From positions 92,334-156,333 of the forward strand of contig JAURXZ010000049.1 of NCBI GenBank assembly GCA_030654175.1: 64,000 nucleotides of DNA, read 5' to 3'. The stretch is from Bacteroidia bacterium (lineage in GTDB: Bacteria > Bacteroidota > Bacteroidia > 2-12-FULL-35-15). The notes under the pieces were generated by a model. That model was given only the letters and a program-made list of their open reading frames with translations, did not search any database and was not told the DNA's origin. Each line of letters opens with the position of its first letter. The first letter of the stretch is position 1. Of this stretch, positions 4,496 to 37,855 are shown one piece after another. Made by a program: the position numbers and the translations under genes.

Positions 4496-4603
4496 GGGCG
4501 TTCCACTTTCTTAAACAAGAAAGTGTCGGGCTTTTCACTTCAATCTTTCCTTTCGCCAGCTGGCGACAGGAAAGGATTTTCGTTTCAATCCCTAACGCAG
4601 CAT
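4496..4603 (-). repeat. Copy A of the dispersed structured intergenic element (about 100 nt), minus orientation
   Basis: Shares GCGTTAGGGATTG..AAATCC..ATTGAAG..AAAGCCCG..hairpin..AACGCCC blocks with copies at 8483, 25198, 33823 and 37758. Confidence 0.8.
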
Positions 4604-4799
4604 ATCCCTGAAAGAACCAACATTTAATATATTTTACTTTTGGGACCAAAAGCTTGCTTTTTTTTATCTTTTTTTGGCTAAAAAATCTACCCCTGACCTG
4701 GATTAAAGTATAAATAAATCCTAATTTTTTTGTACTTTTGTATTCCTAAAAATCAAAATCCCGATAGTTATCAGGATACTAAATTAAAAATTTCACAAA

Positions 4800-6140
4800 A
4801 TGAATATTACTCAAGAGAATGTTGATGAATTAAATGCTGTACTTAGAGTGAAAGTAGCGGCTGAAGATTATTTACCTAAAGTTGAGAGTGCCTTAAAAGC
4901 CCATCAGAAAAAAGCGACTATACCAGGATTTCGTCCGGGAAAAGTTCCTTCAGGAGTGATAAAAAAAATGTATGGTAGGTCTGTATTAGTTGAAGCGATC
5001 AATAAGTTGTTAAACGATTCATTGTATACCTATATAAATGAAAATAAAATTGAAGTATTGGGCAACCCTTTACCAAAATTAGATAGCCATATTGATTGGG
5101 ATAATCAAAAAGACTTTGAATTTTTATATGAAATGGGACTTGCTCCTAAATTTAGTGTTGAACTTTCAGCGAAAGATAAATTCACCTATAAAACTGTGAA
5201 AATTGATGAGGAACTGATAAACAAATATATCTCTGATATTTCTAAACGTTACGGAAAGGTGGAGAATGTTGATGTTTCCGGTGAAAGTGATCTGTTGAAT
5301 GGTGATTTTGTAGAATTGGATGCTAATGGAGAAATTTTAGCGGGTGGTATTTTCAAAACATCATCTATATTTCTTGACAGAGTAAAAGATGAAGCCACCA
5401 AAAAGGCATTGATCGGTTTAAAGAAAGATGATAAAGTAGTATTGGATGCTCAAAAATTAGCTGATAATCCTGTTGATATCGCAACTATGTTGGGTATTGA
5501 AAAAGATGCGGCCGAAAAAATAACATCAAAGATCCAGTTCACAGTAAAAAATATCAGTCGTTTAGCCGGTTCTGATGTTAACCAGGAGTTATTTGATAAA
5601 ATTTATGGTGAAGGAACTATCACCAGTGCAGAAGAATTTAAAGCTAAAATTAAAGATGAATTGACGGGAATGTTCATTAATGACAGCGAACGCAAATTCT
5701 ACAATGACGTAGTTGAATATTTGATGAACAAGATCAATTTTAATTTACCTACCGAATTTTTGAAACGCTGGATAGTTGCGGTAAATGAAAAGCCGGTAAC
5801 ACCTGAACAAGTAGAATCTGAGTTTGAAGGATATTCAAAAGGATTAAAATGGTCGTTGATCGAAAACAAGATCATTAAGGATAATAATATCCAGGTAACC
5901 AATGAGGAAGTTATTGAATCTACCAAACAAATGATCATAGAGCAATTTGGTAAATATGATCCAACTCCAATGGATGCTGAGGCATTGAACTCAACAACAC
6001 AAAGAGTATTATCAAATAAAGACGAAGCAAAAAAAATATACGAAAAATTGTACGGAGAAAAAGTATTGGCTTTCTTTAAATCCAAATTTACATTGGAGAA
6101 CCAGGAACTTTCTTACGATGATTTTTTCAAAAATGCATAA
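4800..6140 (+). CDS. tig: Trigger factor (ribosome-associated PPIase chaperone)
   Basis: PGFRPGKVP signature motif. 446 aa. Conserved tig-clpP-clpX order. Confidence 0.92.
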   Translation: MNITQENVDELNAVLRVKVAAEDYLPKVESALKAHQKKATIPGFRPGKVPSGVIKKMYGRSVLVEAINKLLNDSLYTYINENKIEVLGNPLPKLDSHIDWDNQKDFEFLYEMGLAPKFSVELSAKDKFTYKTVKIDEELINKYISDISKRYGKVENVDVSGESDLLNGDFVELDANGEILAGGIFKTSSIFLDRVKDEATKKALIGLKKDDKVVLDAQKLADNPVDIATMLGIEKDAAEKITSKIQFTVKNISRLAGSDVNQELFDKIYGEGTITSAEEFKAKIKDELTGMFINDSERKFYNDVVEYLMNKINFNLPTEFLKRWIVAVNEKPVTPEQVESEFEGYSKGLKWSLIENKIIKDNNIQVTNEEVIESTKQMIIEQFGKYDPTPMDAEALNSTTQRVLSNKDEAKKIYEKLYGEKVLAFFKSKFTLENQELSYDDFFKNA

Positions 6141-6270
6141 CTGCGATTTTAGATCGTTATAAATTTTTATGCCAAAAAGACATTAAATTTATTGAGGTTT
6201 AATTTTTGCAATCAAAACTATTATAAAAACTTTATAACCTTTTAACCTTTTAAACTTTAAACTCAACTAT

Positions 6271-6945
6271 ATGTTTGATAACAATGAATTCAGAAAATAC
6301 GCTGTAAAGCACCGCGGTATCAGCGGTACTACGTTTGACTCTTACAGCAGACACAATGTAAGTAATGTAACGCCTTATATCATTGAAGAGCGTCAGTTAA
6401 ATGTAACCCAAATGGACGTATTTTCCCGTTTGATGATGGATCGCGTTATTTTCCTTGGAACAGGAATTGACGACCAGGTGGCTAATATCATTCAGGCTCA
6501 GCTTTTATTCTTACAATCGGTGGATGCTAAAAAAGACATCCAGATCTACATGAATAGCCCGGGAGGTTCTGTGTATGCAGGTTTAGGTATTTATGATACC
6601 ATGCAATACATTACGCCTGATGTAGCAACTATTTGTACAGGTATGGCAGCATCAATGGGTGCAGTGCTTATGTGTGCTGGTACAAAAGGTAAACGTGCTG
6701 CATTAAAACACTCACGTGTGATGATTCACCAGCCAATGGGTGGTGCTGAAGGACAAGCTTCTGACATCGAGATCACTGCTCGTGAAATTCAAAAATTGAA
6801 AAAAGAATTGTACGATATTATTGCTAAACACAGCGGACAAACCTATGAAAAAGTTTGGGCTGATAGTGACCGCGATTGTTGGATGACAGCTGAAGAAGCT
6901 AAAGCATACGGCATGGTGGATGAAGTTTTAGCGAAATCTAAATAA
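6271..6945 (+). CDS. clpP: ATP-dependent Clp protease proteolytic subunit
   Basis: Ser/His/Asp catalytic-triad context (GMAASMGA, HQPMGG); 224 aa. Confidence 0.95.
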   Translation: MFDNNEFRKYAVKHRGISGTTFDSYSRHNVSNVTPYIIEERQLNVTQMDVFSRLMMDRVIFLGTGIDDQVANIIQAQLLFLQSVDAKKDIQIYMNSPGGSVYAGLGIYDTMQYITPDVATICTGMAASMGAVLMCAGTKGKRAALKHSRVMIHQPMGGAEGQASDIEITAREIQKLKKELYDIIAKHSGQTYEKVWADSDRDCWMTAEEAKAYGMVDEVLAKSK

Positions 6946-6953
6946 TATTTCAA

Positions 6954-7017
6954 CGAATAACGAATTTCCCGAATAACGAATAAATACAGATTCGTTATTC
7001 GGGAAATTCGTTATTCG
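6954..7017. promoter_or_regulatory. Perfect 28-bp inverted repeat (cgaataacgaatttcccgaataacgaat / attcgttattcgggaaattcgttattcg, 8-nt loop) between clpP and clpX
   Basis: Read directly from the sequence. The arms are also internally repetitive (cgaataacgaat occurs twice per arm). Confidence 0.5.
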
Positions 7018-7036
7018 CTGGAAAATTTGTAAAAAA

Positions 7037-8287
7037 ATGGCAAAAGAAGAAAAAGAAATAAAATGTTCATTCTGTGGACGCAAGAAACAAGAAACGGAAG
7101 TACTCATTGCGGGTATCACCGGGCATATTTGTAATCACTGCGTTACTCAGGCTCAAACCATAGTGCGTGATGAAGCAAGCCAGAATTCAGGTGCTTCCAT
7201 CTTTAATGCATTGCATCTCCTGAAGCCAATGGAGATTAAAAAACATTTGGATGAGTATGTGATCGGCCAGGATGAGGCAAAAAAAGTTCTGTCAGTAGCT
7301 GTTTATAACCATTACAAACGTTTGATTAAAAGTCAGTCGAAAACAGCTCAGAAAGATGAAGTGGAGATCGATAAATCAAATGTGATAATGGTAGGTGAAA
7401 CAGGAACAGGTAAAACATTGTTGGCGCGAACCATTGCAAAAGTACTTAATGTACCTTTTTGCATTGCAGATGCAACAGTGCTTACCGAAGCTGGTTATGT
7501 TGGTGAAGATGTGGAAAGTATTTTATCACGTCTTTTGCAAGCTGCCGATTTTGATGTTACTGCTGCCGAAAGAGGAATTGTATTTATTGATGAGATCGAT
7601 AAGATAGCGCGTAAAAGCGATAATCCTTCTATCACCCGTGATGTTTCAGGTGAAGGTGTTCAGCAAGGTTTATTGAAATTACTGGAAGGTTCAGTTGTAG
7701 GTGTTCCACCACAAGGCGGACGTAAACATCCTGAACAAAAAATGATACAGGTAAATACGAAGAACATATTATTTATTTGTGGCGGAGCTTTTGACGGGAT
7801 CACCAGGAATATCGGAAAACGCTTGCAAACACAAGCTATCGGTTATAATGTAAACAAAGAAAAAGTTAGCATTGATACTGATAATTTATTGCAATATGTT
7901 TCGCCTCAGGATCTAAAAAGTTTTGGTTTAATACCTGAATTAATAGGTCGTTTGCCGGTATTAACTTATTTGAATCCTTTGGATGCGGATACGTTACGCA
8001 GGATTTTGAGCGAGCCCAAAAATGCATTAATAAAACAATATTTGCATTTGTTTGAAATGGATGGTGTAAAAATCACATTTGAAAAAGGTGTGTTGGATTT
8101 TATTGTAGAGAAAGCAATGGAATTTAAGTTAGGTGCACGTGGTTTACGTTCGATTTGCGAGGCTATCATGATGGATCTGATGTTTGATACCCCTTCTGAT
8201 GCAACTGTGAAGGAGGTTAACCTGACACTGCGTTACGCTAAAGATAAACTCAAAAAATCAACTTTGACGAAATTGAAAGTTGCGTAA
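7037..8287 (+). CDS. clpX: ATP-dependent Clp protease ATP-binding subunit ClpX
   Basis: N-terminal C4 zinc finger (CSFCGR...CNHC). Walker [12 protein letters not shown]+ sensor motifs. 416 aa. Confidence 0.95.
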
Positions 8288-8330
8288 AGGAAATTAATAG
8301 TTACTATTCCTGTTTATAATTATTTTATAA

Positions 8331-8358
8331 TGCCCCCTCTTTCAAGGGGGCATTTTTA
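8331..8358 (+). terminator. Rho-independent terminator after clpX (tgccccct-cuuuca-agggggca + T-run)
   Basis: 8-bp GC-rich stem followed by tttttatt. Confidence 0.75.
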
Positions 8359-8482
8359 TTGATATAAATTCGTTAAATTCGTATCAAGAAATTGCGCTAA
8401 CAATTGAAACTTAAAAATCGGAGTCCGATTGTTAAGTTAGGCTAAAGCCCAATAAAAGCTGACAAATTCTCTTTCACTGAAA

Positions 8483-8580
8483 ATGCTGCGTTAGGGATTG
8501 CAGCGTAAATCCTTTTCTGTTTAGAAAAGATTGAAGCGGAAAGCCCGCCCCTTTCTTTTTTCAAAGAAAGGGGAACGCCC
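8483..8580 (+). repeat. Copy B of the dispersed structured intergenic element, plus orientation
   Basis: Same conserved blocks as the other four copies. Confidence 0.8.
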
Positions 8581-8686
8581 TAATGAAAAAGGTTTTAAAC
8601 AAATTATTTTTATTTTATTAATCGAACTCAGCTTAAAAATTAATATCCTATTGGGGAAATTTAATTTGTGATAACAAAAACAAAAA

Positions 8687-11600
8687 ATGAGTGAAAAGAT
8701 TCTGAAAGCATTGATGCGACTGTTCGCTATCATTGCTAAATCTGACGAAAATACTGTTGATGCTAAAAGTGTAGTTGAATCTTATTTGAAACAACAACTT
8801 AATAAAGAGCAGGTGCAAGAGTACCTTGCTATTTATGAAGGTTTTTTAAAATTGCAGGATGAGGGAGCACAGGGGGAGAAGAAAAAAAGACGTTTGGCGG
8901 TTAGTTCTGTTAAAGTAATTGTTATTTGTGATCAGATAAATGAGGAACTGACTCAAAAGCAGAAATTTATTGTTTTGTTGAATCTTATTGAATTTGTAAG
9001 TTCAAATGGTTCCATTTCTGAGCAGGAAATGGAGTTCATATATACTGTTTCTTCCTCATTTAAAATTCCTGATGAAGAATTTAACCAGTGTTTGTCTTTA
9101 GCATCAAAAAATACTATTTCAGAGATTGAAGATTCTCAAAATTTTCTTGTTATCAGTAATCAGAAAAACAGATCGATTGCGCCTTCTCAAATTTCTTTGG
9201 AGGCTAACACGCAAAAGTTATATTCTGAATCCATAATAGGCGATCTGGCTGTTTTACATATTAAAAGTATAGGAATATATCTTATTCGCTATTATGGCGA
9301 TGCAGAACTGTTTTTAAACGGACAAATTATCACTCCTCATAAAATTTATGTTTTATCACAAGGCTCTTCCATTCGAAGTTCAAAAGTTCAGCCAATTTAT
9401 TACAGCGATATTGTATTTGCTTTCTCCAATGATCTTTCGGAAAGTAAAATTGTGTTCGCTGTAAATGATATTGATTTTAAATTTAAAAGTGGACACATAG
9501 GATTGCATAAGCTAAACTTTACTGAAAATTCAGGAAAGCTGATCGGTATTATGGGTGGGAGCGGGGCTGGGAAATCCACGCTGCTTAATATTTTAAATGG
9601 TAACAATACCCCTTCATCAGGAGAGGTCCTGGTAAATGGACATGATCTTCACCAGGATAAAAAAGAGCTGGAAGGTGTAATTGGATATATTCCTCAGGAT
9701 GATCTATTGATTGAAGAACTTACCGTTTATCAAAATTTATTTTATAATTCTAAATTATGTTTTGACGACTATTCGGATGAAAAAATTGATCGGATGGTTA
9801 TTGAAATGCTCAATGATTTGGGCCTCTATGAAACGAAGGACCTAAAAGTTGGTAATTCACTTGATAAAACTATAAGTGGGGGACAACGAAAAAGATTAAA
9901 CATTGCTTTGGAGCTAATTCGGGAGCCTTCAGTATTGTTTGTTGATGAGCCCACCTCGGGGCTGTCTTCAAGGGATTCGGAAAATATAATGGATCTGCTC
10001 AAGGAGCTTTCGCTGAAAGGAAAACTTATTTTCGTTGTGATCCATCAGCCTTCTTCTGAAATTTTTAAAATGTTTGATAAGCTTCTTATCCTTGATGTTG
10101 GTGGTTATCCTATTTACAATGGTAACCCTGTGGAATCGGTGATCTATTTTAAAACCCTTATCAACCAGGTGAATGCGAATGAAAGTGAATGTAATACTTG
10201 CGGTAATGTAAATCCTGAACAGATATTTAATATTATTGAATCAAAAGTATTGGATGAAAATGGCAATCAAACAAGATTAAGAAGAATATCTCCAAAAGAG
10301 TGGAATGAATTTTATATTTCTAAAAACACTGTTAATCCGTCTATTTCAAAGGACACTGCCAAACAACCAATAAAAAACACGTTTAAAAAACCGAATTTTT
10401 TAAACCAATTCAAAGTATTCACTACCCGTGATGTATTATCGAAATTGTCGAATACACAATATCTTTTTATAAATCTTTTAGAGGCGCCTCTGCTTGCCTT
10501 AATTTTAGCCACGCTTATCAAATATTATAAAAACGATCAGAATTATTTATTTTCTGATAATAAAAATATGCCGGCATATATTTTTATGTGTGTGATCGTT
10601 TCTTTATTCATAGGCCTTACCGTTAGTGCGGAGGAAATTATCAGGGACAGGAAAATTTTAAAACGGGAATCGTTTTTGAATTTGAGTAAAGGAAGTTATT
10701 TAACTTCTAAAATACTTATCCTGTTTTTTATTTCCGCCATTCAAACGATAACTTTTGTTTTAATAGGGAATTATATTTTAGAGATCAAAGGAATGTATTT
10801 GGATTATTGGATGGTTTTATTCACTGCTTCTTGTTTTGCAAATATGTTGGGGTTGAATATTTCATCAGCATTTAATTCAGCCGTAACCATTTATATTTTG
10901 ATTCCCTTTTTGTTGATCCCGCAAATATTATTAAGTGGAGTAATTGTGAAGTTCGAAGAATTAAATCCTAAAATCTCCAGCCAGTCGTTGGTGCCATTTT
11001 CAGGAGAGATAATGACCTCACGATGGGCATTTGAGGCTTTGGCTGTTAACCAGTTTGTAGATAATAAGTATGAGAAACAAATTTATAATTATGAAAAAGA
11101 AATAAGCAATGCCAGTTTTAAAAAAGTGTATTGGTTTTCGAAAATGAATGAACTGGTAGATGCTCTTGAAAATAAAAAGGCCGTTTCTTTAAATTTGGAA
11201 ATTTTAAAACACGAAGTAGATCAGGAAATGAAAGCTATTCCGGAAATAATATTTGCTTCTTTGAATAATATGGATGCTGGAAATATTGATGAAAACTTAA
11301 TTAATGAGTTAAAAGAATACCTGGTAAAAGTGAAGGACCACTATTCTCAAAAATATGAAAAGGCCGTTAAGAGCAAGGATGAATGGATGAGTGGATTTCA
11401 AGGAAATGATTTACATAAGGCAGAATATCAGCAGTTGCTGAGCAATTACCAAAATTCAAAAATTGAAGATCTTTTAAAAAATGCAGGTTCTGATCTGGAT
11501 GAGGTCGTTGAAAGTGATGGAAAACTGATCGCTACCGGAGATCCTATTTATAGAGATGGACCCAAGGATCATTTTATACGCTCGCATTTTTTTTCGCCAA

Positions 11601-11755: not shown

Positions 11756-11756
11756 A

Positions 11757-11793
11757 GTTTCACTACTAAGACAATTAGTAGCGAAACTTTATT
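11757..11793. terminator. Bidirectional stem-loop between convergent genes (15-bp stem with one mismatch, 7-nt loop)
   Basis: aaagtttcactacta / tagtagcgaaacttt arms; an A/T run on the minus-strand side. Confidence 0.5.
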
Positions 11794-11819
11794 GATCTAT
11801 CTACAAAGCCTGAACAAAT

Positions 11820-13277: not shown

Positions 13278-13308
13278 AATTTATTTTTTTAAGATTTCAG
13301 TTTTGTTA

Positions 13309-25197: not shown

Positions 25198-25319
25198 ATG
25201 CTGCGTTAGGGATTCCTTCGACAAGCGCTCAGGATAAATTTCGCGGAAATCCTTTTCTCCTTAGAAAAGATTGAAGCGTAAAGCCCGCCCCTTTCTTTTT
25301 TCAAGAAAGGAGAACGCCC
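25198..25319 (+). repeat. Copy C of the dispersed structured intergenic element, plus orientation, with a 33-nt insertion in the first hairpin loop
   Basis: Conserved blocks retained; the insertion sits between GGGATT and AAATCC. Confidence 0.8.
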
Positions 25320-25392
25320 AAAGAATTAAAATTTAACAGTCGGAATTATTTCCTAAAATTTTAAATCAAATTATATTTGATAATATATAATT

Positions 25393-29928: not shown

Positions 29929-30879
29929 ATGAAACAATTCATTCGTGATTATTTAACATTCAATAAACGGGAACGAAACGGGCTATTTGTATTGCTATCC
30001 ATTATTACCTTATTGATCATTTATTTAAATATTTCGGATAAATTTGTTGAACCTGTAAAGGTTGATTTTACTAAATTTGAAAAAGAAATTGAACAGTTTA
30101 ATGCATCTGTAAAACTGATCAATGATTCTTTAAAAAACGAAAGTCAGAATAAATATACCCATCTGAATGAAGAATCCCGGGAAACGAAAACACCGGATAA
30201 TACTCTTAATAAACAACCTGAGCATTTTAATTTTAATCCGAATAATTTATCCAATACTGATTGGCAGCGTTTGGGTTTGGCTGAAAAACAAATTCAAACA
30301 ATAAAGAATTATGAATCAAAAGGTGGAAAATTCAGATACAAAGAAGATGTAAAAAAAATGTATTGTATCTCTGAAAAGCAATATTTATCACTGGAGCCTT
30401 ATATCCAGATCCCGATTGCAAAGAAAATTTTCAAAGAGTTTGAAACTGCAAAATCTGCAAACAAAAATCCGAAAACTTCATTTACAATTGTGGAACTTAA
30501 TTCAGCTGATTCCACTCAACTAACCCATATAAAAGGTATTGGCTCTTTTTATGCAAAAACAATTATTAAATACCGGAATTCACTTGGTGGTTTTGTAGCT
30601 AAAGTACAATTAATGGAGATGTGGAAATTTGACTTCGATAAGTTTGAAGAAGTAGAAAAATATATAATTCTGGATGTATCACAAGTGAAAAAAATAAATA
30701 TAAACACTTGTACAGCAGCGGAATTAAAACATCCATACATCAGTTGGAATGCGGCAAATGGCATCTTTAACTATCGAACCAATCATGGTAAATACAAAAC
30801 ACTTGAAGAGATAAAAAAAACCGATTTGGTTGATGACGAAACATACCGTAAAATTGCACCTTATTTAATTCTTGAATAA
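29929..30879 (+). CDS. Membrane-anchored helix-hairpin-helix DNA-binding protein (ComEA-like)
   Basis: N-terminal TM segment. HhH motifs (ELNSADSTQLTHIKGIGSFYAKTII and NINTCTAAELKHPYIS). Confidence 0.55.
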   Translation: MKQFIRDYLTFNKRERNGLFVLLSIITLLIIYLNISDKFVEPVKVDFTKFEKEIEQFNASVKLINDSLKNESQNKYTHLNEESRETKTPDNTLNKQPEHFNFNPNNLSNTDWQRLGLAEKQIQTIKNYESKGGKFRYKEDVKKMYCISEKQYLSLEPYIQIPIAKKIFKEFETAKSANKNPKTSFTIVELNSADSTQLTHIKGIGSFYAKTIIKYRNSLGGFVAKVQLMEMWKFDFDKFEEVEKYIILDVSQVKKININTCTAAELKHPYISWNAANGIFNYRTNHGKYKTLEEIKKTDLVDDETYRKIAPYLILE

Positions 30880-30987
30880 GTAATTCGAAAACACAAATCT
30901 CCCCATTTTCTGTTATCTTTATGATGAATATTGCTGAAGCACTGAGCTGAAGAAAATAAAAATAATTTATTTTATAATACAAATACT

Positions 30988-31515
30988 ATGTTGGAACAAA
31001 AATTGAAAACCGGAATTCGTGATGTGCCTGATTTCCCTAAGCCTGGCATACTTTTTAAAGATATCACACCCATATTACACAATCCAAAGCTTTGTGATGA
31101 AATTGTAGAAGTATTCTCTAAGTATTGCGCAGATAAAAACATTCATGCCATTGTGGGGGTGGAGAGTCGTGGATTTTTGTTTGGTTTTGCGCTGGCTAAC
31201 AAATTAAATATCCCTTTTGTATTGGTTCGTAAGGCTGGTAAATTGCCCTATAAAACGATTTCATACGAATATGATCTGGAGTACGGCAGTGCGAAAGTGG
31301 AGATGCAGGTGGATGAAATTAAACCGGGCTGGAATGTAATGATACACGATGACTTGCTTGCTACCGGAGGTACAGCCGAAGCTGCTGCAAAATTAATTCA
31401 GATGCAAAATGGCACTGTTGCTGGTTTTGCCTTTGTAGTAGAATTAGATTTTTTGAAAGGTAAAGAAAGGTTAAGCCAATATTCTGAAAATATTATTAGT
31501 TTGGTAAATTACTAA
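30988..31515 (+). CDS. apt: Adenine phosphoribosyltransferase
   Basis: PRPP-binding motif VMIHDDLLATGGT; VGVESRGF; 175 aa. Confidence 0.9.
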   Translation: MLEQKLKTGIRDVPDFPKPGILFKDITPILHNPKLCDEIVEVFSKYCADKNIHAIVGVESRGFLFGFALANKLNIPFVLVRKAGKLPYKTISYEYDLEYGSAKVEMQVDEIKPGWNVMIHDDLLATGGTAEAAAKLIQMQNGTVAGFAFVVELDFLKGKERLSQYSENIISLVNY

Positions 31516-31653
31516 ATTCATTTGGCTTCTCAAAAAGCCTTTCTTCCCGTCATTTCGAGCGGAGTCGAGAAATCTTGTTACTTGATTAACAATATGCCTC
31601 GGCTCCGTTCAGTGTGACATTTAGGAAAAATTAATTTTATTTAGCCTCAAAGA

Positions 31654-32541
31654 TTACTTATAAGCCTTTACCAATACCTCCAAAGCATTTTGAGTAACCT
31701 TATTTACTTTTACCAAAGGTAAACGAAGATTTGCCTTACAAATACCAAATAATTCCAACACCGCTTTAATTCCCGCAGGATTTCCATCTGCAAATAATTG
31801 TTCGGTGATATCAGTTAATTTATAATGTAATTTCTGTGCTTCTTTTACATTACCCGCTAAGATCTGGCGCGTCATTTCTGAAAAATCTTTTGGAAAAGCA
31901 TTTGCTATAACGGAGATTACACCATCAGCACCACTTGCTATCATTGGTAAAGAAAGCATATCATCACCTGAGATCACTAAAAACTCTTTCGGTTTGTATT
32001 TAATGATCTTCATGCATTGTTCTAAATTACCGGACGCTTCTTTAATAGCAATAATGTTTTTAAAATCATTTGCTAATTTAATAGTTGTTTCAGCGGTCAT
32101 GTTTGAGCAGGTGCGTCCCGGAACGTTATATAATATGATAGGGACAGGACAAGCTTCTGCAATAGCTTTATAATGCTGATAAATACCTCTTTGATTCGGC
32201 TTGTTGTAAGCAGGTGATACCGAAAGAATTGCATCTATACCATTAAAATCAGTAGTTTTAAGACTGTTTACAATTTCCAGTGTATCATTTCCGCCTAAAC
32301 CAAGAACTATAGGCACACGTTTATTAACGCTTTCAATAACTTGTGCTACTACCGATTTTTTTTCATCTTTCGATAATGTAACAGATTCACCGGTTGTACC
32401 TAATACAACAACGTATTCGCATCCACCTTTAATAATATGATTAACAAGCTTGTTTAACGATTTATAATCAACACTATTATCTTTATTGAATGGAGTTACT
32501 ATTGCAACCCCTGTACCTTTAAATTTATTGTTATTGCTCAT
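31654..32541 (-). CDS. dapA: 4-hydroxy-tetrahydrodipicolinate synthase
   Basis: GTTGES motif and conserved Schiff-base lysine context; 295 aa. Confidence 0.9.
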   Translation of the reverse strand: MSNNNKFKGTGVAIVTPFNKDNSVDYKSLNKLVNHIIKGGCEYVVVLGTTGESVTLSKDEKKSVVAQVIESVNKRVPIVLGLGGNDTLEIVNSLKTTDFNGIDAILSVSPAYNKPNQRGIYQHYKAIAEACPVPIILYNVPGRTCSNMTAETTIKLANDFKNIIAIKEASGNLEQCMKIIKYKPKEFLVISGDDMLSLPMIASGADGVISVIANAFPKDFSEMTRQILAGNVKEAQKLHYKLTDITEQLFADGNPAGIKAVLELFGICKANLRLPLVKVNKVTQNALEVLVKAYK

Positions 32542-32620
32542 GTTTGATATGTTTTTTTTTCGATTAAAAGATGTGAAGATAAATCAAAGAATTTGTTAAT
32601 TATCAAATTTTCAAATTGTT

Positions 32621-33739
32621 TTAGCCCTTGTATAATGAAATCAATTGTTTTGTAATATTTTGCGGGTTAAATTTTTGCGCGTATTCAAAACCGCGTTCCG
32701 ACATTTGTTTACGATCGCTTTCAGAACTTAAAAGTAAATTTACCTTTTCGGCCAGTTCATTTTCATCTTCCGGATTAATATAAATGCTGTCAGGCCCACC
32801 TGCTTCAGGAAAGCAACCGCCTCTTGTTGTAATAACAGGAGTTTTACTTGTTAATGCTTCAATGATAGGAATACCAAAACCTTCCAGTACTGAAGGAAAA
32901 ATAAATACTGTTGCCAGTTTGTATATTACCGGCAGGTCAGCATTAGTAACGTATTCAAGAAATTTAACACGATTTTCTAATTTGTTTTTAGTGATATATT
33001 CCATCACCGTTTTGAAATAATTTTTCTTCTTTCCAACGATTACTAAAGGAATATCTTTTATTTGTTTTAATGCCTTTATTATGGTTAATAAATTTTTACG
33101 CTCCTCTACCGTACCAACATATAACAAGAAATTATCAGGTAAATGATGTTTGGCAATTACTTCCTGAATATGCTCTGCAGAAGGTTGTTGATAATATAAC
33201 TCATCACAACTTTGGTAAATGACCTGAATTTTATTTTCTGGAATAAAATAATATTTTTCTATATCGCGTTTGGTTTCTTCGCTGATAGCAACAATTACAT
33301 CAGCCGTATCACAAGCGTGACGAAATTTTTTGTTGTAAATTTTACTATCTAAAAAAGGATATAATTTAGGGTAACGTAAAAAAATAAGATCATGAATAGT
33401 AACGATCTTTTTTCCTTTAAAGTTCTTTATATTAAACGGCAGTTCATTGCTAAGGCCATGATACACATTGATTTGTTGCTCACTTAACAGTTCCGTAATT
33501 CCAAAAGAACGCCAGCGTGATCGCAACGTTTTATCAATAAAACCATGAGGTTCCTGAACATTTATATTTTTTTGTGTAGCAATATATTTTTGAAAATCAG
33601 TATCAGGCTGATGAGTAGTGAATAACGTATACTTATTTTCCGGATAATAATGGTGCAATGATTTAACAAGTGTACGTGCATAATTACCCAATCCACTAGT
33701 ATTCAGAAAAGCCCTTTTGGCATCAAATGCAATGTTCAT
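32621..33739 (-). CDS. GT4-family glycosyltransferase (group 1)
   Basis: C-terminal EGFGIPIIEAL retaining-GT motif; 372 aa. Confidence 0.8.
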   Translation of the reverse strand: MNIAFDAKRAFLNTSGLGNYARTLVKSLHHYYPENKYTLFTTHQPDTDFQKYIATQKNINVQEPHGFIDKTLRSRWRSFGITELLSEQQINVYHGLSNELPFNIKNFKGKKIVTIHDLIFLRYPKLYPFLDSKIYNKKFRHACDTADVIVAISEETKRDIEKYYFIPENKIQVIYQSCDELYYQQPSAEHIQEVIAKHHLPDNFLLYVGTVEERKNLLTIIKALKQIKDIPLVIVGKKKNYFKTVMEYITKNKLENRVKFLEYVTNADLPVIYKLATVFIFPSVLEGFGIPIIEALTSKTPVITTRGGCFPEAGGPDSIYINPEDENELAEKVNLLLSSESDRKQMSERGFEYAQKFNPQNITKQLISLYKG

Positions 33740-33822
33740 AATACTCTACGAATTACTATTTTAACGAATTACTATTTTAACGAATTAAAAATTTGTATTA
33801 AATTGCTACTCTCCAGGCTAAT

Positions 33823-33912
33823 GTCGCGTTAGGGATTGCAACGAAAATCCTTTTCTGTTTAGAAAAGATTGAAGTGTAAAGCCCGCCCTTTCTTTTTCAA
33901 GAAAGGAACGCC
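33823..33912 (+). repeat. Copy D of the dispersed structured intergenic element, plus orientation
   Basis: Conserved blocks as in the other copies; lies between two minus-strand genes. Confidence 0.8.
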
Positions 33913-33925
33913 CAAATCCCATTAA

Positions 33926-34732
33926 TTAAACTGCAACATCATACTCTCTCAAAGCATTATTCAGAGAGGTTTTTAAATCAGTACTTTCTTTACGTTGTCC
34001 AATAATTAATGCGCAGGGAACCTGAAAGTCACCAGCCGGAAATTTTTTGGTGTAAGAACCTGGAATAACCACAGAACGGGGAGGAACAATTCCTTTATAT
34101 TCTTTAGGTTCGGAAGATGTTACATCAATAATTTTTGTTGATTTAGTAAGTACAACGTTGGCACCAAGTACCGCTTCTTTTTGAACTCTTACACCTTCTA
34201 CCACTATACAGCGTGAACCAATAAAACAACCATCCTCAATAATAACAGGAGCCGCTTGTACAGGTTCCAGCACCCCGCCAATTCCAACCCCACCGCTTAA
34301 ATGCACATCTTTACCAATTTGGGCGCAAGAGCCAACAGTGGCCCATGTATCTACCATTGTACCACTGTCCACATAAGCACCAATATTTACATAGCTCGGC
34401 ATCATGATCACGCCTTTAGCTAAATATGCTCCGTATCGGGCAACAGCATTAGGAACAACGCGCACGCCAAGTGCTTCATAATTTGTCTTTAACTTCATTT
34501 TATCATGATACTCAAAAATTCCAACTTCAATAGTTTGCATTTTTTGAATTGGAAAATAAAGTATCACTGCTTTTTTGATCCATTCATTTACTTTCCAGTC
34601 GTTTCCGATAGGCTCCGCAACACGCAGCTTACCTTTATCAAGCATTTCAATTACTTCATGTATCGTATTTTTTGTTTTTTCGTCTTTTAGTAATTCCCGG
34701 TTTTCCCAGGCAGCTTCAATTATTTGTTGCAT
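33926..34732 (-). CDS. dapD: 2,3,4,5-tetrahydropyridine-2,6-dicarboxylate N-succinyltransferase
   Basis: Left-handed beta-helix hexapeptide repeats; 268 aa. Confidence 0.8.
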   Translation of the reverse strand: MQQIIEAAWENRELLKDEKTKNTIHEVIEMLDKGKLRVAEPIGNDWKVNEWIKKAVILYFPIQKMQTIEVGIFEYHDKMKLKTNYEALGVRVVPNAVARYGAYLAKGVIMMPSYVNIGAYVDSGTMVDTWATVGSCAQIGKDVHLSGGVGIGGVLEPVQAAPVIIEDGCFIGSRCIVVEGVRVQKEAVLGANVVLTKSTKIIDVTSSEPKEYKGIVPPRSVVIPGSYTKKFPAGDFQVPCALIIGQRKESTDLKTSLNNALREYDVAV

Positions 34733-34982
34733 GTTTATTGATTTCTAAAATGTTTGTTCCTACAAATGTATTGAATATTTATTTTAAAAGATCTAATTCT
34801 CTGTGATCTAAAATTGGTTTTAAAAGTATGGAATTAGAATTTAAGGGATCATTGTTTTTTAAGGATAAAAATGGTCAGCAGATTTAATTTGGCGCTTAAT
34901 TGAAGAACTCAGTCTAAAAGGAGAATTTACAGATTTAGAAATTAGAATTTAATACTTGAATCTTTTTCATTATTTTTGTGCG

Positions 34983-35393
34983 ATGGCTCGTATAATGGCA
35001 ATTGATTATGGTAGCAAACGCGTTGGGATTGCTGTTACAGATCCTTTTCAAATTATTGCCACGGGGCTTACAACTGTTCATTCAAAGGATTTGATTGAAT
35101 TTTTGAAAAACTATGTGCTGAAGGAAGAAGTGGAATGCATTGTGGTGGGGGAGCCAAAGCGCTTGAATAATGAGCCTTCCGATTCGGCTCGTTTTATTGA
35201 ACCTTTTGTACTGCATTTAAAACGTACATTCCCGGGTATAAAAGTTGAACGGATGGATGAGCGCTTTACCTCAAAGATGGCATTTCAGACAATGATCGAT
35301 AGTGGGTTAAAGAAGAAAGCAAGACAAAATAAAGAGTTGGTAGATGAAATTAGCGCTACCATTATTTTGCAGAGCTATATGAATAAGAAATGA
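34983..35393 (+). CDS. ruvX: Putative pre-16S rRNA nuclease / Holliday junction resolvase-like YqgF
   Basis: MARIMAIDYGSKRVGIAVTD N-terminal motif. Start chosen at the internal Met of the ORF-track frame. Confidence 0.85.
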   Translation: MARIMAIDYGSKRVGIAVTDPFQIIATGLTTVHSKDLIEFLKNYVLKEEVECIVVGEPKRLNNEPSDSARFIEPFVLHLKRTFPGIKVERMDERFTSKMAFQTMIDSGLKKKARQNKELVDEISATIILQSYMNKK

Positions 35394-35475
35394 TTACGGA
35401 TTGCGGATTTATGATTGCGGATTAGGTGATTATCAATCCGAAATCGACAATCCGAAATCCTAAATTTTATAAAAA

Positions 35476-36075
35476 ATGATATTACCAGTTATCGCTTATG
35501 GCGACCCCGTTTTGCGCAAAATAGGAGAGGAGATCACTAAAGATTATCCCGGTTTGCAGGATACAATTGCGAATATGTTTGAAACGATGCACAATGCACT
35601 TGGCGTTGGTTTAGCTGCTCCACAAATTGGCAAATCTATCCGTTTGTTTGTTATTGAAACCAAGCCATTCACCGAAAGGGAAGAAAATGACGAAGATGAG
35701 GATGAATTTTCTCCTGAAGAACGTGAACAATTAGCAAATTTTCGCAAAGTATTTATTAACGCAAAAGTTATTGAAGAAGAGGGGAAAGAATGGGTTTTTA
35801 ATGAAGGATGCCTGAGTATTCCAAAGATACGTGAAGATGTTTTGCGTAAGCCTAAAATACACATTCAATATTATGATGAAAACTTTAACTTCTTTGATGA
35901 AACGTATGAAGGGCTTGCAGCAAGAGTTATTCAGCATGAGTTCGATCATATTGAAGGTAAATTATTCACCGATAGGATCAGTCCTTTGCGCAGACGTTTA
36001 TTACAAGGTAAACTTACAGATATATCAAAAGGTAAAGTAAAGATAGGTTATAAGATGCGCTTTCCGAGCAGGTAG
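35476..36075 (+). CDS. def: Peptide deformylase
   Basis: GVGLAAPQIG, EGCLS and HEFDHIEG metal-binding motifs. Confidence 0.92.
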   Translation: MILPVIAYGDPVLRKIGEEITKDYPGLQDTIANMFETMHNALGVGLAAPQIGKSIRLFVIETKPFTEREENDEDEDEFSPEEREQLANFRKVFINAKVIEEEGKEWVFNEGCLSIPKIREDVLRKPKIHIQYYDENFNFFDETYEGLAARVIQHEFDHIEGKLFTDRISPLRRRLLQGKLTDISKGKVKIGYKMRFPSR

Positions 36076-36222
36076 TTTTAAGGGATTTAGCAATTTTAAG
36101 ACAGACAATTAAATAAACAGTGAAATAACGATTTAGAAAAGTGTTAACTTTAAATTCAATCATTTTTGTAATTAGCAAAACCTACAAATCAATTAATCTC
36201 CAAATCAATAATTAAAAAAGAT

Positions 36223-36777
36223 ATGAAAGACTTAAAATTAGCTTTAATAGTGGGCCTGATGGTTTTTATTGCATCATGTGGAAATGAGCAAAATGCTGAA
36301 AAAAGCGCAACAGGAGAACAGCCACTTCGCGAGCAATACATTTCTCAAATAAAAAATCTGGAGAAAGAAATGCACCAATCTACAGAAATGAATAATACCA
36401 CAGCAAATCTGGCTATCAAAGCCTATACCGATTTTGTGATTATTTTCCCAACTGATTCCCTGGCTCCTGATTATTTATTTAAGGCGGGCGAAATTGCTAC
36501 AGCAACAAAAAAATACAAGCAGGCTTTAATGCATTATCAAGCCATTACAACTAAATATCCTGATTATAAATATTTTAGAGAAAGCCTTTATTTACAAGGT
36601 TTTTTACTGGATAATTTTTTGAATGATGATGCAGGTGCCAAGATCATTTACGAAGAAATTGTTGCCAAATATCCTGACACAAATTATGCAAAAGATGCTA
36701 AAGCTGCCATCAATAATTTAGGCAAAACGGATGAACAATTGATAGAGGAGTTTAAGAAGAAAAACGAAAAAAAGTAA
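36223..36777 (+). CDS. TPR-like lipoprotein (hypothetical)
   Basis: Lipobox LMVFIASCG. Repeated YPDxxY/AKDA motifs. Confidence 0.5.
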   Translation: MKDLKLALIVGLMVFIASCGNEQNAEKSATGEQPLREQYISQIKNLEKEMHQSTEMNNTTANLAIKAYTDFVIIFPTDSLAPDYLFKAGEIATATKKYKQALMHYQAITTKYPDYKYFRESLYLQGFLLDNFLNDDAGAKIIYEEIVAKYPDTNYAKDAKAAINNLGKTDEQLIEEFKKKNEKK

Positions 36778-36795
36778 GTAAGTACTAATAAAATC

Positions 36796-36872
36796 GCCAC
36801 AGATTTCACAGATTTAAGTTTCACTTTTGGGGAACCATTTTTAATCTGTGTAATCTGTGGCAATTTTTTTTT
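36796..36872. terminator. Long bidirectional hairpin (19-bp arms gccacagatttcacagatt / aatctgtgtaatctgtggc, about 28-nt loop) plus T-run, between convergent genes
   Basis: Arms differ at one position. T9 tract on the plus side. Confidence 0.6.
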
Positions 36873-36877
36873 GGTCC

Positions 36878-37675
36878 TTAACTAAATTCTTTCTCAAGCA
36901 ATTCTCTCAATCGTTGAGGCGTTAGGGCATGTTTCAGATTACCTTCCTTCGAAACTGAAATTTCTCCTGTTTGTTCAGAAACCACAATTGCAATGGCATC
37001 CGTATTTTCAGTGATGCCTACTGCAGCGCGGTGGCGCATTCCCAGGTGGGCCGGGAAGTTCGAATCTTCTGTAACAGGCAAAACACATCGTGCACCGGTT
37101 ATTATATTGTTGGATATTATTACCGCTCCATCATGTAATGGAGAATTTTTATAAAAAATACTTTCAATTATCCGTACCGAAACCTTTGCATGGATAGCAT
37201 CACCGGTATTGGCATAAAACTTCAGATCATTATTTTTTGTGATAATAATAATTGCTCCTGTTTTGCTTTCGCTCATATTTTTACAAGCCTTAACAATGGC
37301 ATTGATATCCAGAACCTGTTCCTTATTTACCTGCCACTTAAAATCAAAGATCCCTTTACTTAATTTCCCTTTTGTAAAAATATCGCTGGTACCAATAAAT
37401 AGTAAAAAACGCCTTAATTCCTGTTGAAAAACAATGAGTAAAGCAATAAATCCAACATCAATAAATTTAGCCAATATGCTTCCAAACAGGTGCATATTAA
37501 GGGTTTTTACAACCAGCCATAATAAATAAAATAAAAGAATACCAATGAATATATTAATAGCAACTGTCCCTTTTATCAAATAATACAATTGATAAATCAA
37601 CAGGGCTACCAATAAAATATCCACCACATCAATCCAGCGAACAGTAATAAAGCCTTGAATGAATAGATTTAACAT
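36878..37675 (-). CDS. cdaA: Diadenylate cyclase CdaA (c-di-AMP synthase, DAC domain)
   Basis: Three N-terminal TM helices. DGA and RHRAA DAC motifs (HDGAVIIS...GMRHRAAVGITE). Confidence 0.75.
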   Translation of the reverse strand: MLNLFIQGFITVRWIDVVDILLVALLIYQLYYLIKGTVAINIFIGILLFYLLWLVVKTLNMHLFGSILAKFIDVGFIALLIVFQQELRRFLLFIGTSDIFTKGKLSKGIFDFKWQVNKEQVLDINAIVKACKNMSESKTGAIIIITKNNDLKFYANTGDAIHAKVSVRIIESIFYKNSPLHDGAVIISNNIITGARCVLPVTEDSNFPAHLGMRHRAAVGITENTDAIAIVVSEQTGEISVSKEGNLKHALTPQRLRELLEKEFS

Positions 37676-37757
37676 GGTACAAGTATAAGAATTTTAAGTT
37701 TTGTTAGCTGAGTTCGATTAATAAAACAACAACAATTGGTTTAAAATATGCGAATTT

Positions 37758-37855
37758 GGGCGTTTCCTTTCTTAAAAGAGAAAGGACCGGGCTTTCCGCT
37801 TCAATCTTTTTGAGAAGAACAAAAAGGATTTCTGCTGCAATCCCTAACGCAGCAT
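37758..37855 (-). repeat. Copy E of the dispersed structured intergenic element, minus orientation
   Basis: Conserved blocks as in the other copies. Hairpin stems differ from them by compensatory substitutions. Confidence 0.8.

Follow-up and report, generated by a model that had tools for sequence, protein, structure and literature searches.

The window (the whole stretch of DNA analysed here, 64 kb in length) carries five intergenic copies of an element that is alignable over ~100 nt, with 60 invariant columns. The copies were first reported in an earlier note, and all five are real and lie where it had placed them; nhmmer on the window recovered precisely these five and no others. The neighbouring genes that it named (csp, clpX, a T9SS cargo gene, dapD and carA) were borne out, and the overlapping open reading frames at 4467-4649, 8521-8733, 37704-37943 and 37756-37962 exist. 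In the following list, copy coordinates extend from the start of the closing stem through the last base of the tail; P0 to P3 are helices, and R1 and R2 direct repeats.

4492-4598, minus strand: copy A, type I Flavo-1, RF01705 56.4 bits; P0 5' strand 4598-4594, R1 4590-4574, P2 4573-4546, R2 4545-4527, P3 4526-4503, P0 3' strand 4502-4498, tail CCAAAT 4497-4492
8488-8584, plus strand: copy B, type I Flavo-1, the reference copy, RF01705 52.3 bits; P0 5' strand GCGTT 8488-8492, A 8493, GG 8494-8495, R1 8496-8512, P2 8513-8528, R2 8529-8547, P3 8548-8573, P0 3' strand AACGC 8574-8578, tail CCTAAT 8579-8584
8585-8632, plus strand: 3' extension (..TTTTAAAC.AATT...TTTTATTAATCGAACTCAGCT) after copy B
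25203-25323, plus strand: copy C, type I Flavo-1 with nested insertion, RF01705 29.3 bits, partial; P0 25203-25207, R1 interrupted 25211-25252, P2 25253-25268, R2 25269-25287, P3 25288-25312, P0 3' strand 25313-25317, tail 25318-25323
25215-25240, minus strand: second small repeat, TTTATCCTGAGCGCTTGTCGAAGG, in R1 of copy C
33826-33917, plus strand: copy D, type I Flavo-1, RF01705 53.0 bits; P0 33826-33830, R1 33834-33850, P2 33851-33866, R2 33867-33885, P3 33886-33906, P0 3' strand 33907-33911, tail 33912-33917
37705-37753, minus strand: the same 3' extension after copy E
37754-37850, minus strand: copy E, type I Flavo-1, RF01705 51.3 bits; P0 37850-37846, R1 37842-37826, P2 37825-37807, R2 37806-37788, P3 37787-37765, P0 3' strand 37764-37760, tail 37759-37754

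Copy A lies antisense between csp (+) and tig (+), ~40 nt past the csp terminator hairpin. Copy B is placed sense, 130 nt past the clpX terminator (8329-8354) and ~100 nt ahead of the ATG of an ABC-transporter gene at 8687. Copy C occupies the convergent gap between the T9SS cargo gene (+, Por_Secre_tail) and a CitMHS transporter gene (-). Copy D is antisense, flanked by two minus-strand genes, and its P0 3' strand is separated by 14 nt from the dapD stop codon (33926-33928), which lies 8 nt beyond the tail. Finally, copy E is sense; it starts ~12 nt past a terminator-like carA hairpin (37890-37863) and lies ~80 nt ahead of the cdaA start codon.

Copies A, B, D and E match Rfam RF01705 at 51-56 bits (E = 1e-8 to 1e-9), above the curated threshold of 42 bits, while copy C, interrupted by another small repeat, for that reason stays below it with a partial match of 29.3 bits. 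Since four copies match one Rfam model and nhmmer recovers the same five, chance is excluded. The copies align to RF01705 and are, with near certainty, the Flavo-1 motif, in a form that we term type I. Flavo-1 is a structured repeat of Bacteroidota, catalogued in 2010 and placed in the Rfam class 'Gene; sRNA' (Weinberg 2010, Genome Biol 11:R31, PMC2864571). The Rfam search thus removes the novelty claimed earlier for the family. The published motif has the same two conserved blocks, a long-range helix with internal loops (P1) and a variable apical hairpin (P2), as well as the same range (Bacteroidota and a few Spirochaetes), multiple copies and no gene association. New relative to the catalogue are the additional closing helix, the second hairpin and the occurrence in small single-stranded-DNA phages: the closing helix, the optional second hairpin and the CCAAA tail of the window copies lie outside both the 76-nt Rfam model and the 2010 consensus. 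The Rfam consensus resembles another architecture, type II (UAGCCCC...GCGGGAAAUAGCUCC); type I comprises 79 of 124 sampled copies (89 under a looser classifier). The insertion in copy C is a member of a second repeat family, whose TTTATCCTGAGCGCTTGTCGAAGG module also interrupts R2 of Flavo-1 copies at loci L005 and L133 and is solitary at L002. It adds 25 nt net, not 33 as first thought, and interrupts the first conserved block rather than a hairpin loop.

One strand of the element folds into a three-way junction. P0 is a 5-bp closing helix, GCGUU/AACGC. In the long helix P1, the direct repeats R1 (GAUUGNAGNGNAAAUCC) and R2 (GAUUGNAGNGNAAAGCC) pair with each other in short Watson-Crick steps split by five invariant G/A oppositions, including two GNA/GNA internal loops, an arrangement that gives the helix a near two-fold symmetry. 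P1 is capped by the hairpin P2, free in sequence and length; P3 is a second free hairpin, optional in other genomes, and the CCAAA tail is single-stranded, 3' of the junction. Across 86 type I copies of other genomes, pairing was found in 97.5% of cells versus 84.6% in shuffles, and 212 cells had changed on both sides versus 45.5. The closing stem found a perfect Watson-Crick partner in 69 of 87 copies versus 3 of 87 controls, with 11 distinct stem sequences, and the G/A oppositions were kept in 80-86 of the 86 copies. Compensatory stems with invariant linkers, as proposed in the earlier note, are upheld by this covariation, and the block order with two variable hairpins is as described there. 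Its fold stands in part: the GCGUU/AACGC stem and both variable hairpins covary in more than 100 genomes, whereas a local GGAUU...AAUCC stem can be drawn but covariation favours long-range pairing between blocks 1 and 2.

The covariation also bears on the idea of a double-stranded DNA operator, in which two direct quasi-palindromic boxes (GATTG-N6-AAATC) would be bound by a dimeric DNA-binding protein. Two 17-nt boxes are indeed conserved phylum-wide, each quasi-palindromic, and a duplex site would account for indifference to gene orientation. However, the bases at positions 7-8 of the two boxes covary as reverse complements of each other and not as repeats, the dinucleotide that precedes box 1 covaries with the one that follows box 2, and P0, P2 and P3 keep pairing, not sequence. 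Moreover, G-U outnumbers A-C in P2 by 23:4, where a duplex site predicts 1:1. An operator, already strongly disfavoured by this covariation pattern, is thus hardly credible. The G-U excess is found on one strand irrespective of gene orientation (8:1 in sense-placed and 11:3 in antisense-placed copies), with G-U pairs scarce overall, at about 2-3% of pairs.

No gene family is linked to Flavo-1: the 171 flanking open reading frames yielded 236 Pfam families, none with more than three occurrences. Type I copies are co-directional sense in 19 cases, co-directional antisense in 31, convergent in 12 and divergent in 10. Neither a promoter motif at a fixed distance from the copies nor a terminator of their own was found, and csp, clpX and carA each have their own terminator upstream of copies A, B and E, respectively. 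Given the lack of Pfam recurrence, the mixed orientation, the lack of a positioned promoter and these upstream terminators, we tentatively infer that Flavo-1 is free-standing, neither a regulator of its neighbours nor an ordinary small-RNA gene.

Some copies do hug the ends of genes. In 18 of 86 copies, among them copy D (14 nt from its P0 3' strand), the tail lies ≤25 nt from an opposite-strand stop codon, and in some it overlaps that codon; distances have a median of 45 nt versus 98 nt in the other orientation (p = 0.006). This antisense stop-adjacent arrangement also occurs after a homologous phage open reading frame that has diverged to 27% identity, and after the Rep gene of microvirus L135. 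The complement of Flavo-1 could serve after a stop codon as an mRNA 3' stabiliser or weak terminator; stop-adjacent copies are 97% Watson-Crick paired, and a pattern scan of the antisense strand returned a weak terminator-like site in B and in C. Such a role appears quite improbable, as the complete structure lacks a following U-tract on both strands, many copies lie in the other orientation or in divergent intergenic regions, antisense-placed copies still show a wobble bias towards the Flavo-1 sense strand (11:3), and the strict conservation of purine-rich loops is left unexplained.

Transcription can be assessed in Flavobacterium psychrophilum, whose 2.8-Mb genome contains 128 Flavo-1 copies (PMC9723704 supplement). 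Strand-specific arrays gave sense-strand signal from several copies. Six of 11 sampled features rose from about 6-8 in exponential broth to 10-14 on agar or in late stationary phase; these six share an expression cluster with tRNA-Cys, and three of them are antisense to operons. The opposite-strand segment N_0297 showed no such rise, and three of the 11 features are silent (0001 nearly so). According to the transcriptome authors, hits occur in both sense and antisense orientation to transcribed regions, and many are not transcribed. Cross-hybridisation among the 128 similar copies is possible for these signals.

An sRNA family, trans-acting or protein-binding, would have all or some copies yield a stable ~100-nt sense RNA; this RNA would offer its three-way junction and G/A helix to a protein, e.g., as a sponge or RNP component, and would become more abundant in slow growth. 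The six induced features agree with this, as do the covariation and G-U excess on the annotated strand, the symmetric G/A-rich internal loops, the GNRA loops of some P3 hairpins and the orthologous copies kept with compensatory changes. Nevertheless, we regard an sRNA as somewhat unlikely. Promoters at a conserved distance and terminators are lacking, copy E begins ~12 nt after a terminator, and some antisense copies are wedged between two coding sequences with spacers of ~10 nt. Silent and untranscribed copies, possible cross-hybridisation and the low share of G-U pairs also weigh against it.

Phages carry the motif as well. Flavo-1 occurs in at least three Microviridae lineages plus another phage-like group, and Microviridae make up about half of the motif-bearing viral contigs. 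In one Microviridae clade (8 IMG/VR contigs and several GenBank microviruses), a compact type I copy on the packaged (+) strand lies directly 3' of a highly conserved non-coding module with several hairpins, and P0 covaries among these phages (GCGTC/GACGC, GCGTT/AACGC, GTGTT/AACAC). In phiX174-type phages, an intergenic region that follows the major capsid gene contains the origin, and the microvirus Flavo-1 copies sit at the same location. Flavo-1 could therefore be a folded single-stranded DNA site for a host replication or recombination factor, comparable to complementary-strand origins or priming signals of single-stranded-DNA phages and rolling-circle plasmids, with microviruses having borrowed a host recognition structure. 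Beyond the phage copies, a strand asymmetry independent of transcription direction would suit such a site, which needs no promoter, and many short hairpins end in C:G-closed GNA triloops, a kind of loop that is stable in DNA. Like the phiX174 primosome assembly site, the G4 origin, the M13 minus origin and ssoA, Flavo-1 is strand-specific and multi-hairpin with conserved unpaired bases, although it is not known to have priming activity. We nonetheless consider this unlikely. Microviruses L135 and L147 have the motif antisense to genes, on the non-packaged strand; the window has three plus-strand and two minus-strand copies within 34 kb; and copy coordinates in F. psychrophilum show no replichore bias, albeit in small samples. 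Moreover, the microvirus + strand is also the mRNA strand, so that DNA and RNA are not separated.

We tentatively favour a dispersed, REP-like repeat whose active form is a folded single strand, although at less than even confidence. The element would be copied to new intergenic sites and phage genomes via a single-stranded intermediate, in which the conserved G/A-studded helix would provide a handle for a putative trans-acting protein. After insertion in tolerated gaps, past terminators or beside stop codons, copies could persist, some of them apparently kept by selection; the five window copies sit in such gaps. Dispersal is indicated by the copy numbers, by hairpin subtypes shared within one genome or lineage, by nesting with other repeats, by a head-to-head pair at L112, by copies in Spirochaete MAGs and phages, and by the patchy occupation of sites: copy presence differs between close relatives, site A being filled in 4 of 11 loci with identical Csp (the window and 10 other contigs) and site D empty in L130 despite an identical DapD. 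Dependence on a single strand is suggested by the predominance of G-U over A-C in both placements and by the lack of a target-site duplication at any boundary tested.

The earlier note had left open a structured RNA family or a REP/BIME-like DNA element; the structure is confirmed, and after our tests either may apply. REP/BIME elements of enterobacteria and pseudomonads, associated with RAYT transposases, are likewise extragenic, multi-copy and in either orientation. Both families are palindromic with compensatory variation, lack target-site duplications, occupy sites between a terminator and the promoter that follows or immediately behind stop codons, and form inverted pairs, mosaics with other repeats and positions persisting across related species. 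In contrast, Flavo-1 is a three-way junction of ~100 nt and not a hairpin of ~35 nt, with marked strand asymmetry and conserved G/A mismatches, and its core sequence is conserved phylum-wide, where REPs are species-specific, which counts against the REP-like reading. So does the missing mobilising enzyme: no RAYT/Y1 gene was found near copies, either as a recurrent transposase family among the 171 flanking frames or by tblastn of 1.07 Mb around copies with two Y1-transposase query sequences. Flavo-1 had no match among 72,556 plasmids, and no insertion junction could be pinned down, the empty sites being too diverged. The sense signal in F. psychrophilum fits an RNA role. Finally, there are signs of selection on some copies at their present sites, which would not be expected of a purely selfish repeat: at site A, relatives share 89-90% identity in the element but 45-56% in its flanks, and orthologous Dokdonia and Algibacter copies have a rare P0 variant in common, with compensatory differences.

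Other mobile or replicative systems offer partial parallels. MITEs (Correia/NEMIS, RUP, ERIC) are also short, non-coding, dispersed, intergenic and foldable with lineage-specific subfamilies, but the sole terminal inverted repeat of Flavo-1 is the 5-bp P0, without target-site duplication at tested boundaries. Unlike complementary-strand origins, chromosomal copies have no replication orientation bias (small samples), and two microviruses carry the motif on the non-packaged strand. Integron attC sites resemble Flavo-1 in that structure is conserved over sequence, mismatched boxes pair with each other and the terminal hairpin varies; they also function in the form of a folded single strand, as proposed here for Flavo-1. 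However, Flavo-1 has no cassette arrays or adjacent integrase, and on inspection its core-site sequences do not present RYYYAAC/GTTRRRY in the required order.

The ~50-nt 3' extension is common to copies B and E and to copy 2 of L005. A matching upstream inverted repeat is absent at copy E; in B and L005 copy 2, the end of the extension is an inverted repeat of GAGTYCGATT, located ~60-80 nt upstream of the element.

The dispersed intergenic element is the known family Flavo-1 (RF01705), in a sub-architecture that we call type I, and its identity is settled. At the curated thresholds of Rfam 15, Flavo-1 was the only family returned for the window, with four matches (copies A, D, B and E at 56.4, 53.0, 52.3 and 51.3 bits, respectively; the gathering threshold of the curated covariance model is 42 bits). 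Copy C yielded a partial match of 29.3 bits (E = 2e-4) because of a nested insertion, its first conserved block being interrupted by 25 extra bases.

4492-4598, minus strand: Flavo-1 copy A
8488-8584, plus strand: Flavo-1 copy B
25203-25323, plus strand: Flavo-1 copy C
33826-33917, plus strand: Flavo-1 copy D
37754-37850, minus strand: Flavo-1 copy E

The five sequences are present where the earlier note had read them, align over ~100 nt with 60 invariant columns, and are exactly those found in the 64-kb window by nhmmer with a profile from related copies. The neighbours it had named (Csp, ClpX, DapD, CarA and a Por_Secre_tail T9SS cargo protein) were recovered together with trigger factor, and the small overlapping ORFs exist as well; these spurious frames are accounted for by the Flavo-1 copies. 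The same note had put the element forward as new, unless it matched a family already catalogued; since the Rfam scan finds it catalogued as RF01705, that novelty falls. Flavo-1 was originally described with 239 members and graded "probably RNA, not cis-regulatory," the sole comment being on its range: nearly all Flavobacteria, plus a few other Bacteroidetes and Spirochaetes (Weinberg et al., 2010; PMC2864571). The papers found to mention the motif assign it no function, and a large MITE census draws no link to it. The window element shares the family traits of being intergenic, multi-copy and from Bacteroidota, as seen from the encoded T9SS Por_Secre_tail protein and from identical proteins in Bacteroidota MAGs. 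For the window the result is one of annotation only, and ordinary as such; leads on a 15-year-old orphan motif come from the extension of the fold, from the strand test and from the copies in microviruses.

A pattern fixing only parts of the core was used to fetch 118 loci of other genomes, which originate from Flavobacteriaceae, Weeksellaceae, Sphingobacteriales, Chitinophagaceae, several Spirochaete MAGs and one MAG labelled Saccharibacteria. Two architectures occur among them, and all window copies are type I, which reads in order Y-GCGUU-A-GG, block R1 (GAUUGNAGNGNAAAUCC), the apical hairpin P2, block R2 (GAUUGNAGNGNAAAGCC) and CG, a second hairpin P3 or nothing, AACGC, and the tail CCAAA. 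Type II has UAGCCCC before R1 and GGGAAAUAGCUCC after R2, lacks P3, and matches the Rfam consensus.

For the covariation test, 86 type I copies were cut to fixed-length blocks and assessed on a structure made of the 5-bp closing helix P0, the long-range helix P1 (R1 with R2) and P2. Standard pairs fill 97.5% of cells, compared with 84.6% after shuffling and no more than 53% once the partners have been shifted by 1-3 columns; both sides have changed in 212 cells versus 45.5 in shuffles, with compensatory changes at 12 pairs. Such both-side changes affect pairs 16:46 and 17:45 in 15/86 and 38/86 copies, and pairs 7:55 and 8:54 in 9/86 and 16/86; the pairs of P2 covary too. As the 3' strand of P0 had been found by complementarity, a control was run: of 87 copies, 69 have within 100 nt a fully Watson-Crick-complementary 5-mer with C directly after it, against 3/87 for a neighbouring 5-mer and 3/87 for a shuffled one, and P0 exists in eleven sequence variants. 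The closing stem and the two variable hairpins proposed in the earlier note are, on these figures, real. Its local GGAUU/AAUCC stem can be drawn, yet only the long-range R1 x R2 pairing carries covariation of its own, and the local hairpin is not the pairing that the data support. Positions 7-8 of R1 covary with positions 7-8 of R2 as their reverse complement, and the two bases preceding R1 with the two bases following the AAAGC of R2. This pairing is the published P1 helix, and the structure agrees with the 2010 SS_cons, a long-range helix capped by a hairpin of variable length.

Within P1, five G/A oppositions are retained in 80-86 of the 86 copies; the junction adds another, retained in 78. 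Of the five, four combine into two GNA/GNA internal loops, so that the helix is nearly two-fold symmetric. Neither the 76-nt Rfam model nor the 2010 consensus structure includes P0, P3 or the tail, an extension that constitutes a modest new detail. The CUUUCUU/AAGAAAG form of P3 is found only in the window and a few relatives, the P2 loop GAGGNACGA recurs in 17 of 89 type I copies, and hairpin subtypes are common to members of the same genome or lineage.

Which strand is selected can be read from the wobble pairs. P2, whose pairs are set by position alone, contains 23 G-U against 4 A-C, and P1 and P2 together give 8:1 in sense-placed and 11:3 in antisense-placed copies; counts for P3 were set aside as unreliable, because its long inserts are mis-registered. 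A duplex or cruciform site predicts 1:1; what is selected is therefore a single strand folded alone, and reading Flavo-1 as a duplex DNA operator is most improbable. Selection acts on the annotated Flavo-1 strand irrespective of the direction of the host genes. The G-U excess is compatible alike with RNA and with single-stranded DNA and does not tell them apart.

Type I copies are found co-directional with their neighbours in sense (19) or antisense (31), between convergent genes (12) and between divergent ones (10), and the 171 flanking ORFs match 236 Pfam families with at most three per family. A cis-regulatory leader or riboswitch is ruled out by these mixed orientations and by the lack of a recurrent flanking gene family. 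No U-tract follows the element on either strand, and csp, clpX and carA possess their own terminator hairpins upstream of copies A, B and E, which rules out an intrinsic terminator. In 18 of 86 copies, no more than 25 nt separate the 3' tail from an opposite-strand stop codon (14 nt for copy D), and in two cases the tail overlaps that codon; the median distance from the tail to that stop is 45 nt, against 98 nt from the sense gene's stop to the 5' end of the element (p = 0.006). Such spacing would suit an antisense 3'-end element, a reading that we consider quite unlikely; the stop-adjacent copies are 97% Watson-Crick paired, and their wobbles, at 3:3, show no bias.

Aminoacyl-tRNA synthetase genes recur beside the copies, accounting for at least 4 of the 171 flanking ORFs (fetched loci L054 and L124 among them). 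The 5' UTRs of alaS and valS in F. psychrophilum carry the motif on the opposite strand, and ftsY is also listed among the flanking genes. The recurrence of synthetase genes may reflect chance or the long intergenic regions of these genes. In three Flavobacterium species, a type II copy is located 23-33 nt upstream, in sense, of an orthologous gene whose 123-aa product has a predicted signal peptide, and the P2 of the copy differs between species:

L011, 4492-4582: type II copy by the 123-aa-protein gene
L014, 6083-6180: type II copy by the 123-aa-protein gene
L089, 5239-5336, minus strand: type II copy by the 123-aa-protein gene

Published data from F. psychrophilum, which has 128 Flavo-1 copies in 2.8 Mb, place the matches sense or antisense to transcribed regions, many of them not being transcribed (PMC9723704 and supplement). 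We sampled 11 Flavo-1 features from the strand-specific array table of that study. Six rise from ~6-8 in exponential broth to 10-14 on agar or in late stationary phase; these belong to the expression cluster of tRNA-Cys, and three of them are antisense to operons. Three others are silent or nearly so, one tracks its operon and one resembles a 3' UTR. Such readings suggest a stable sense RNA; similar copies may also have cross-hybridised. A stable protein-binding small RNA, the reading to which the arrays lend themselves, is possible but doubtful; no positional peak of the sigma-A-type promoter motifs TAnnTTTG or TTTG was detected upstream of the copies, and no terminator belonging to Flavo-1 was found. 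On agar, array values of the 82-nt intergenic segment THC0290_N_0001 (LT670843.1 3409-3490) climb to 16-17, and its profile across samples matches that of the Flavo-1 features and of tRNA-Cys (PMC9723704 supplement); the segment may represent a further small stable RNA or reflect an RNA-extraction effect.

Flavo-1 shows signs of dispersal and, at some sites, of conservation in place. Copy density is one per 13 kb in the window and about one extra copy per 87 kb in the other fetched loci. The csp-tig site is filled in 4 of 11 loci with identical Csp (the window and 10 fetched contigs), one filled contig having a second, rearranged copy, and the dapD site of copy D is empty in L130, a contig with identical DapD that holds a GATTTTTT tandem repeat there (2008-2097). 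No exact insertion boundaries were obtained from empty sites: those at csp-tig and dapD have diverged or hold other repeats, and contigs with ClpX, CdaA and CitMHS were too few. Among relatives, identity at site A is 89-90% for the element and 45-56% for the flanking intergenic DNA. Dokdonia and Algibacter carry an orthologous copy, antisense and wedged between two coding sequences, which has in common the rare P0 GAGUU/AACUC and displays compensatory differences in P1 and P3. The reading that covers the largest share of the evidence is a REP-like dispersed repeat, which would spread, be recognised as a folded single strand and have some of its copies retained by selection; we favour it tentatively, at somewhat less than even confidence.

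Flavo-1 was compared with the established classes of such elements. REP/BIME sequences of the RAYT type are GC-rich imperfect palindromes of 20-40 nt with a 5' GTAG-type tetranucleotide, whereas Flavo-1 spans 92-121 nt, folds into a three-way junction with AT-rich stems and lacks a GTAG-type motif. REPs with a RAYT flank the gene of this Y1 HUH transposase; no Y1 transposase was found among the 171 flanking ORFs, nor, as a weak negative, by tblastn with two Y1-transposase queries in 1.07 Mb of fetched DNA. MITEs have terminal inverted repeats of at least 10 bp and a target-site duplication. A classical MITE is ruled out, as the sole inverted repeat is the 5-bp P0 and, at any boundary offset tested, no more than 5 of 86 copies have direct repeats of 4-8 nt. 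IS200/IS605-derived elements (PATEs) have subterminal hairpins without terminal inverted repeats or target-site duplications, are strand-specific, show replication-tied orientation and have TnpA in the genome. Flavo-1 is strand-specific and lacks both kinds of repeat; no orientation bias is seen in small samples (three plus and two minus in the window), and TnpA was not found nearby by the same tblastn, again a weak negative. Integron attC sites are cassette boundaries with R''/R' core sites in an array beside intI; they are ruled out, the copies being scattered among housekeeping genes. Phage_integrase accounts for only 3 of the 171 flanking ORFs, and an integrase link of the GCGGC/AAC subfamily is likewise ruled out, its neighbours being housekeeping genes.

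Small repeats of other kinds nest inside Flavo-1 copies. One such family, GGAnTTTATCCTGAGCGnnnGnCGAAGGGC, enters the central part of R1 or R2 and is also found alone:

Window 25215-25240, minus strand: GGAnTTTATCCTGAGCGnnnGnCGAAGGGC repeat nested in copy C
L005 ~3490-3530: GGAnTTTATCCTGAGCGnnnGnCGAAGGGC repeat
L133 ~935-952: GGAnTTTATCCTGAGCGnnnGnCGAAGGGC repeat
L002 ~3470-3500: GGAnTTTATCCTGAGCGnnnGnCGAAGGGC repeat

L023 has a string resembling CTGAGC..GTCGAAG in its P2 loop, and L014 and L108 have such strings in their flanks. In the csp-tig region of L002 and L003, copy A is absent and another repeat, GCCACAAAGGCACAAAGAC..., is present instead; this intergenic region collects several repeat families. 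Copy B and the second copy of L005 are bracketed by an inverted repeat, CTGAGTTCGATTnTTAAT ... ATTAATCGAACTCAG, like a tRNA T-arm, of which copy E has the 3' half only. The bracketed unit could be a larger composite element of ~250 nt carrying Flavo-1:

Window 8416-8440 and 8612-8632, plus strand: bracketing inverted repeat, copy B
Window 37705-37727, minus strand: 3' half of the repeat, copy E
L005 3560-3900: bracketing inverted repeat

Just downstream of an HU (Bac_DNA_binding) gene, L112 (~1890-2150) contains two type I copies head to head, ~45 nt apart, an arrangement like that of a BIME. Type I copies in Spirochaete MAGs (L017, L024, L034, L044, L055, L059) are intact, with GC-rich P0 and P3 and an identical core. 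An intact type I copy also occurs in L065, labelled Candidatus Saccharibacteria, and may be a binning error.

Two scans of IMG/VR yielded 18 viral contigs with the motif, about half of them Microviridae by their Phage_F capsid and HUH Rep domains; 72,556 plasmid records yielded no Flavo-1 match. One Microviridae clade (seven IMG/VR contigs and a GenBank record) has a compact type I copy, located on the packaged strand, the one that also bears the genes. Further relatives in GenBank are bajarodmic virus 65 and 585 and Tortoise microvirus 1 and 97. This minimal version of ~75 nt has CUC-GAA-GAG as P2 and an absent or tiny P3, and its P0 covaries (GCGUC/GACGC, GCGUU/AACGC, GUGUU/AACAC); in two clade members, P1 is reduced to its outer half and has a single GNA/GNA loop. 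Directly before the copy lies a highly conserved non-coding module of several hairpins (e.g., TGCGTGAAACGCA, GCAACTnTGTTGC); depending on the genome, this module follows the capsid gene or precedes the Rep gene.

L144 1405-1580 (ON840028.1): Microviridae module with compact Flavo-1, gut-associated clade
L145, L146, L148-L150, L152, L153: the same module and copy
L154-L156: the same module and copy

Phages of the phiX174 type have their complementary-strand origin in the region after the capsid gene, and for this reason a host-factor site on single-stranded DNA is kept among the readings; we nonetheless regard it as unlikely, since in two further microviruses the motif runs opposite to the genes (its tail, in one of the two, overlapping the stop codon of Rep). 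A broader proposal, possible but doubtful, is that Flavo-1 would be a structured single-stranded DNA element rather than a small RNA. A host replication or recombination protein would read its sense strand, as a priming or single-strand-initiation signal or as the substrate of an HUH or tyrosine enzyme; it would number hundreds per Bacteroidota chromosome and be built into the non-coding replication module of microviruses of these hosts.

Flavo-1 is among the most abundant "sRNA" entries of Rfam, and has spent 15 years without a function. The choice between RNA and DNA is made testable by the closed three-way junction, the near-symmetric G/A helix and a strand choice independent of gene direction; it is also served by the lack of promoter, terminator, target-site duplication and gene association, by conservation of some copies at the same sites in different genera and by the ~75-nt version kept in a non-coding module of Microviridae. 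Should a single-stranded DNA signal or a new mobile repeat prove true, thousands of loci would have to be re-annotated in Rfam.

Within a separate phage-like group, homologous ORFs whose identity has fallen to 27% each have an antisense copy 0-8 nt beyond the stop codon. The encoded proteins, of 541-572 aa, had no Pfam or PHROG match and are 27-65% identical across three contigs:

L140 6100-6200: antisense Flavo-1 after the 541-572 aa protein gene
L137 8650-8750: antisense Flavo-1 after the 541-572 aa protein gene
L143 8665-8765: antisense Flavo-1 after the 541-572 aa protein gene
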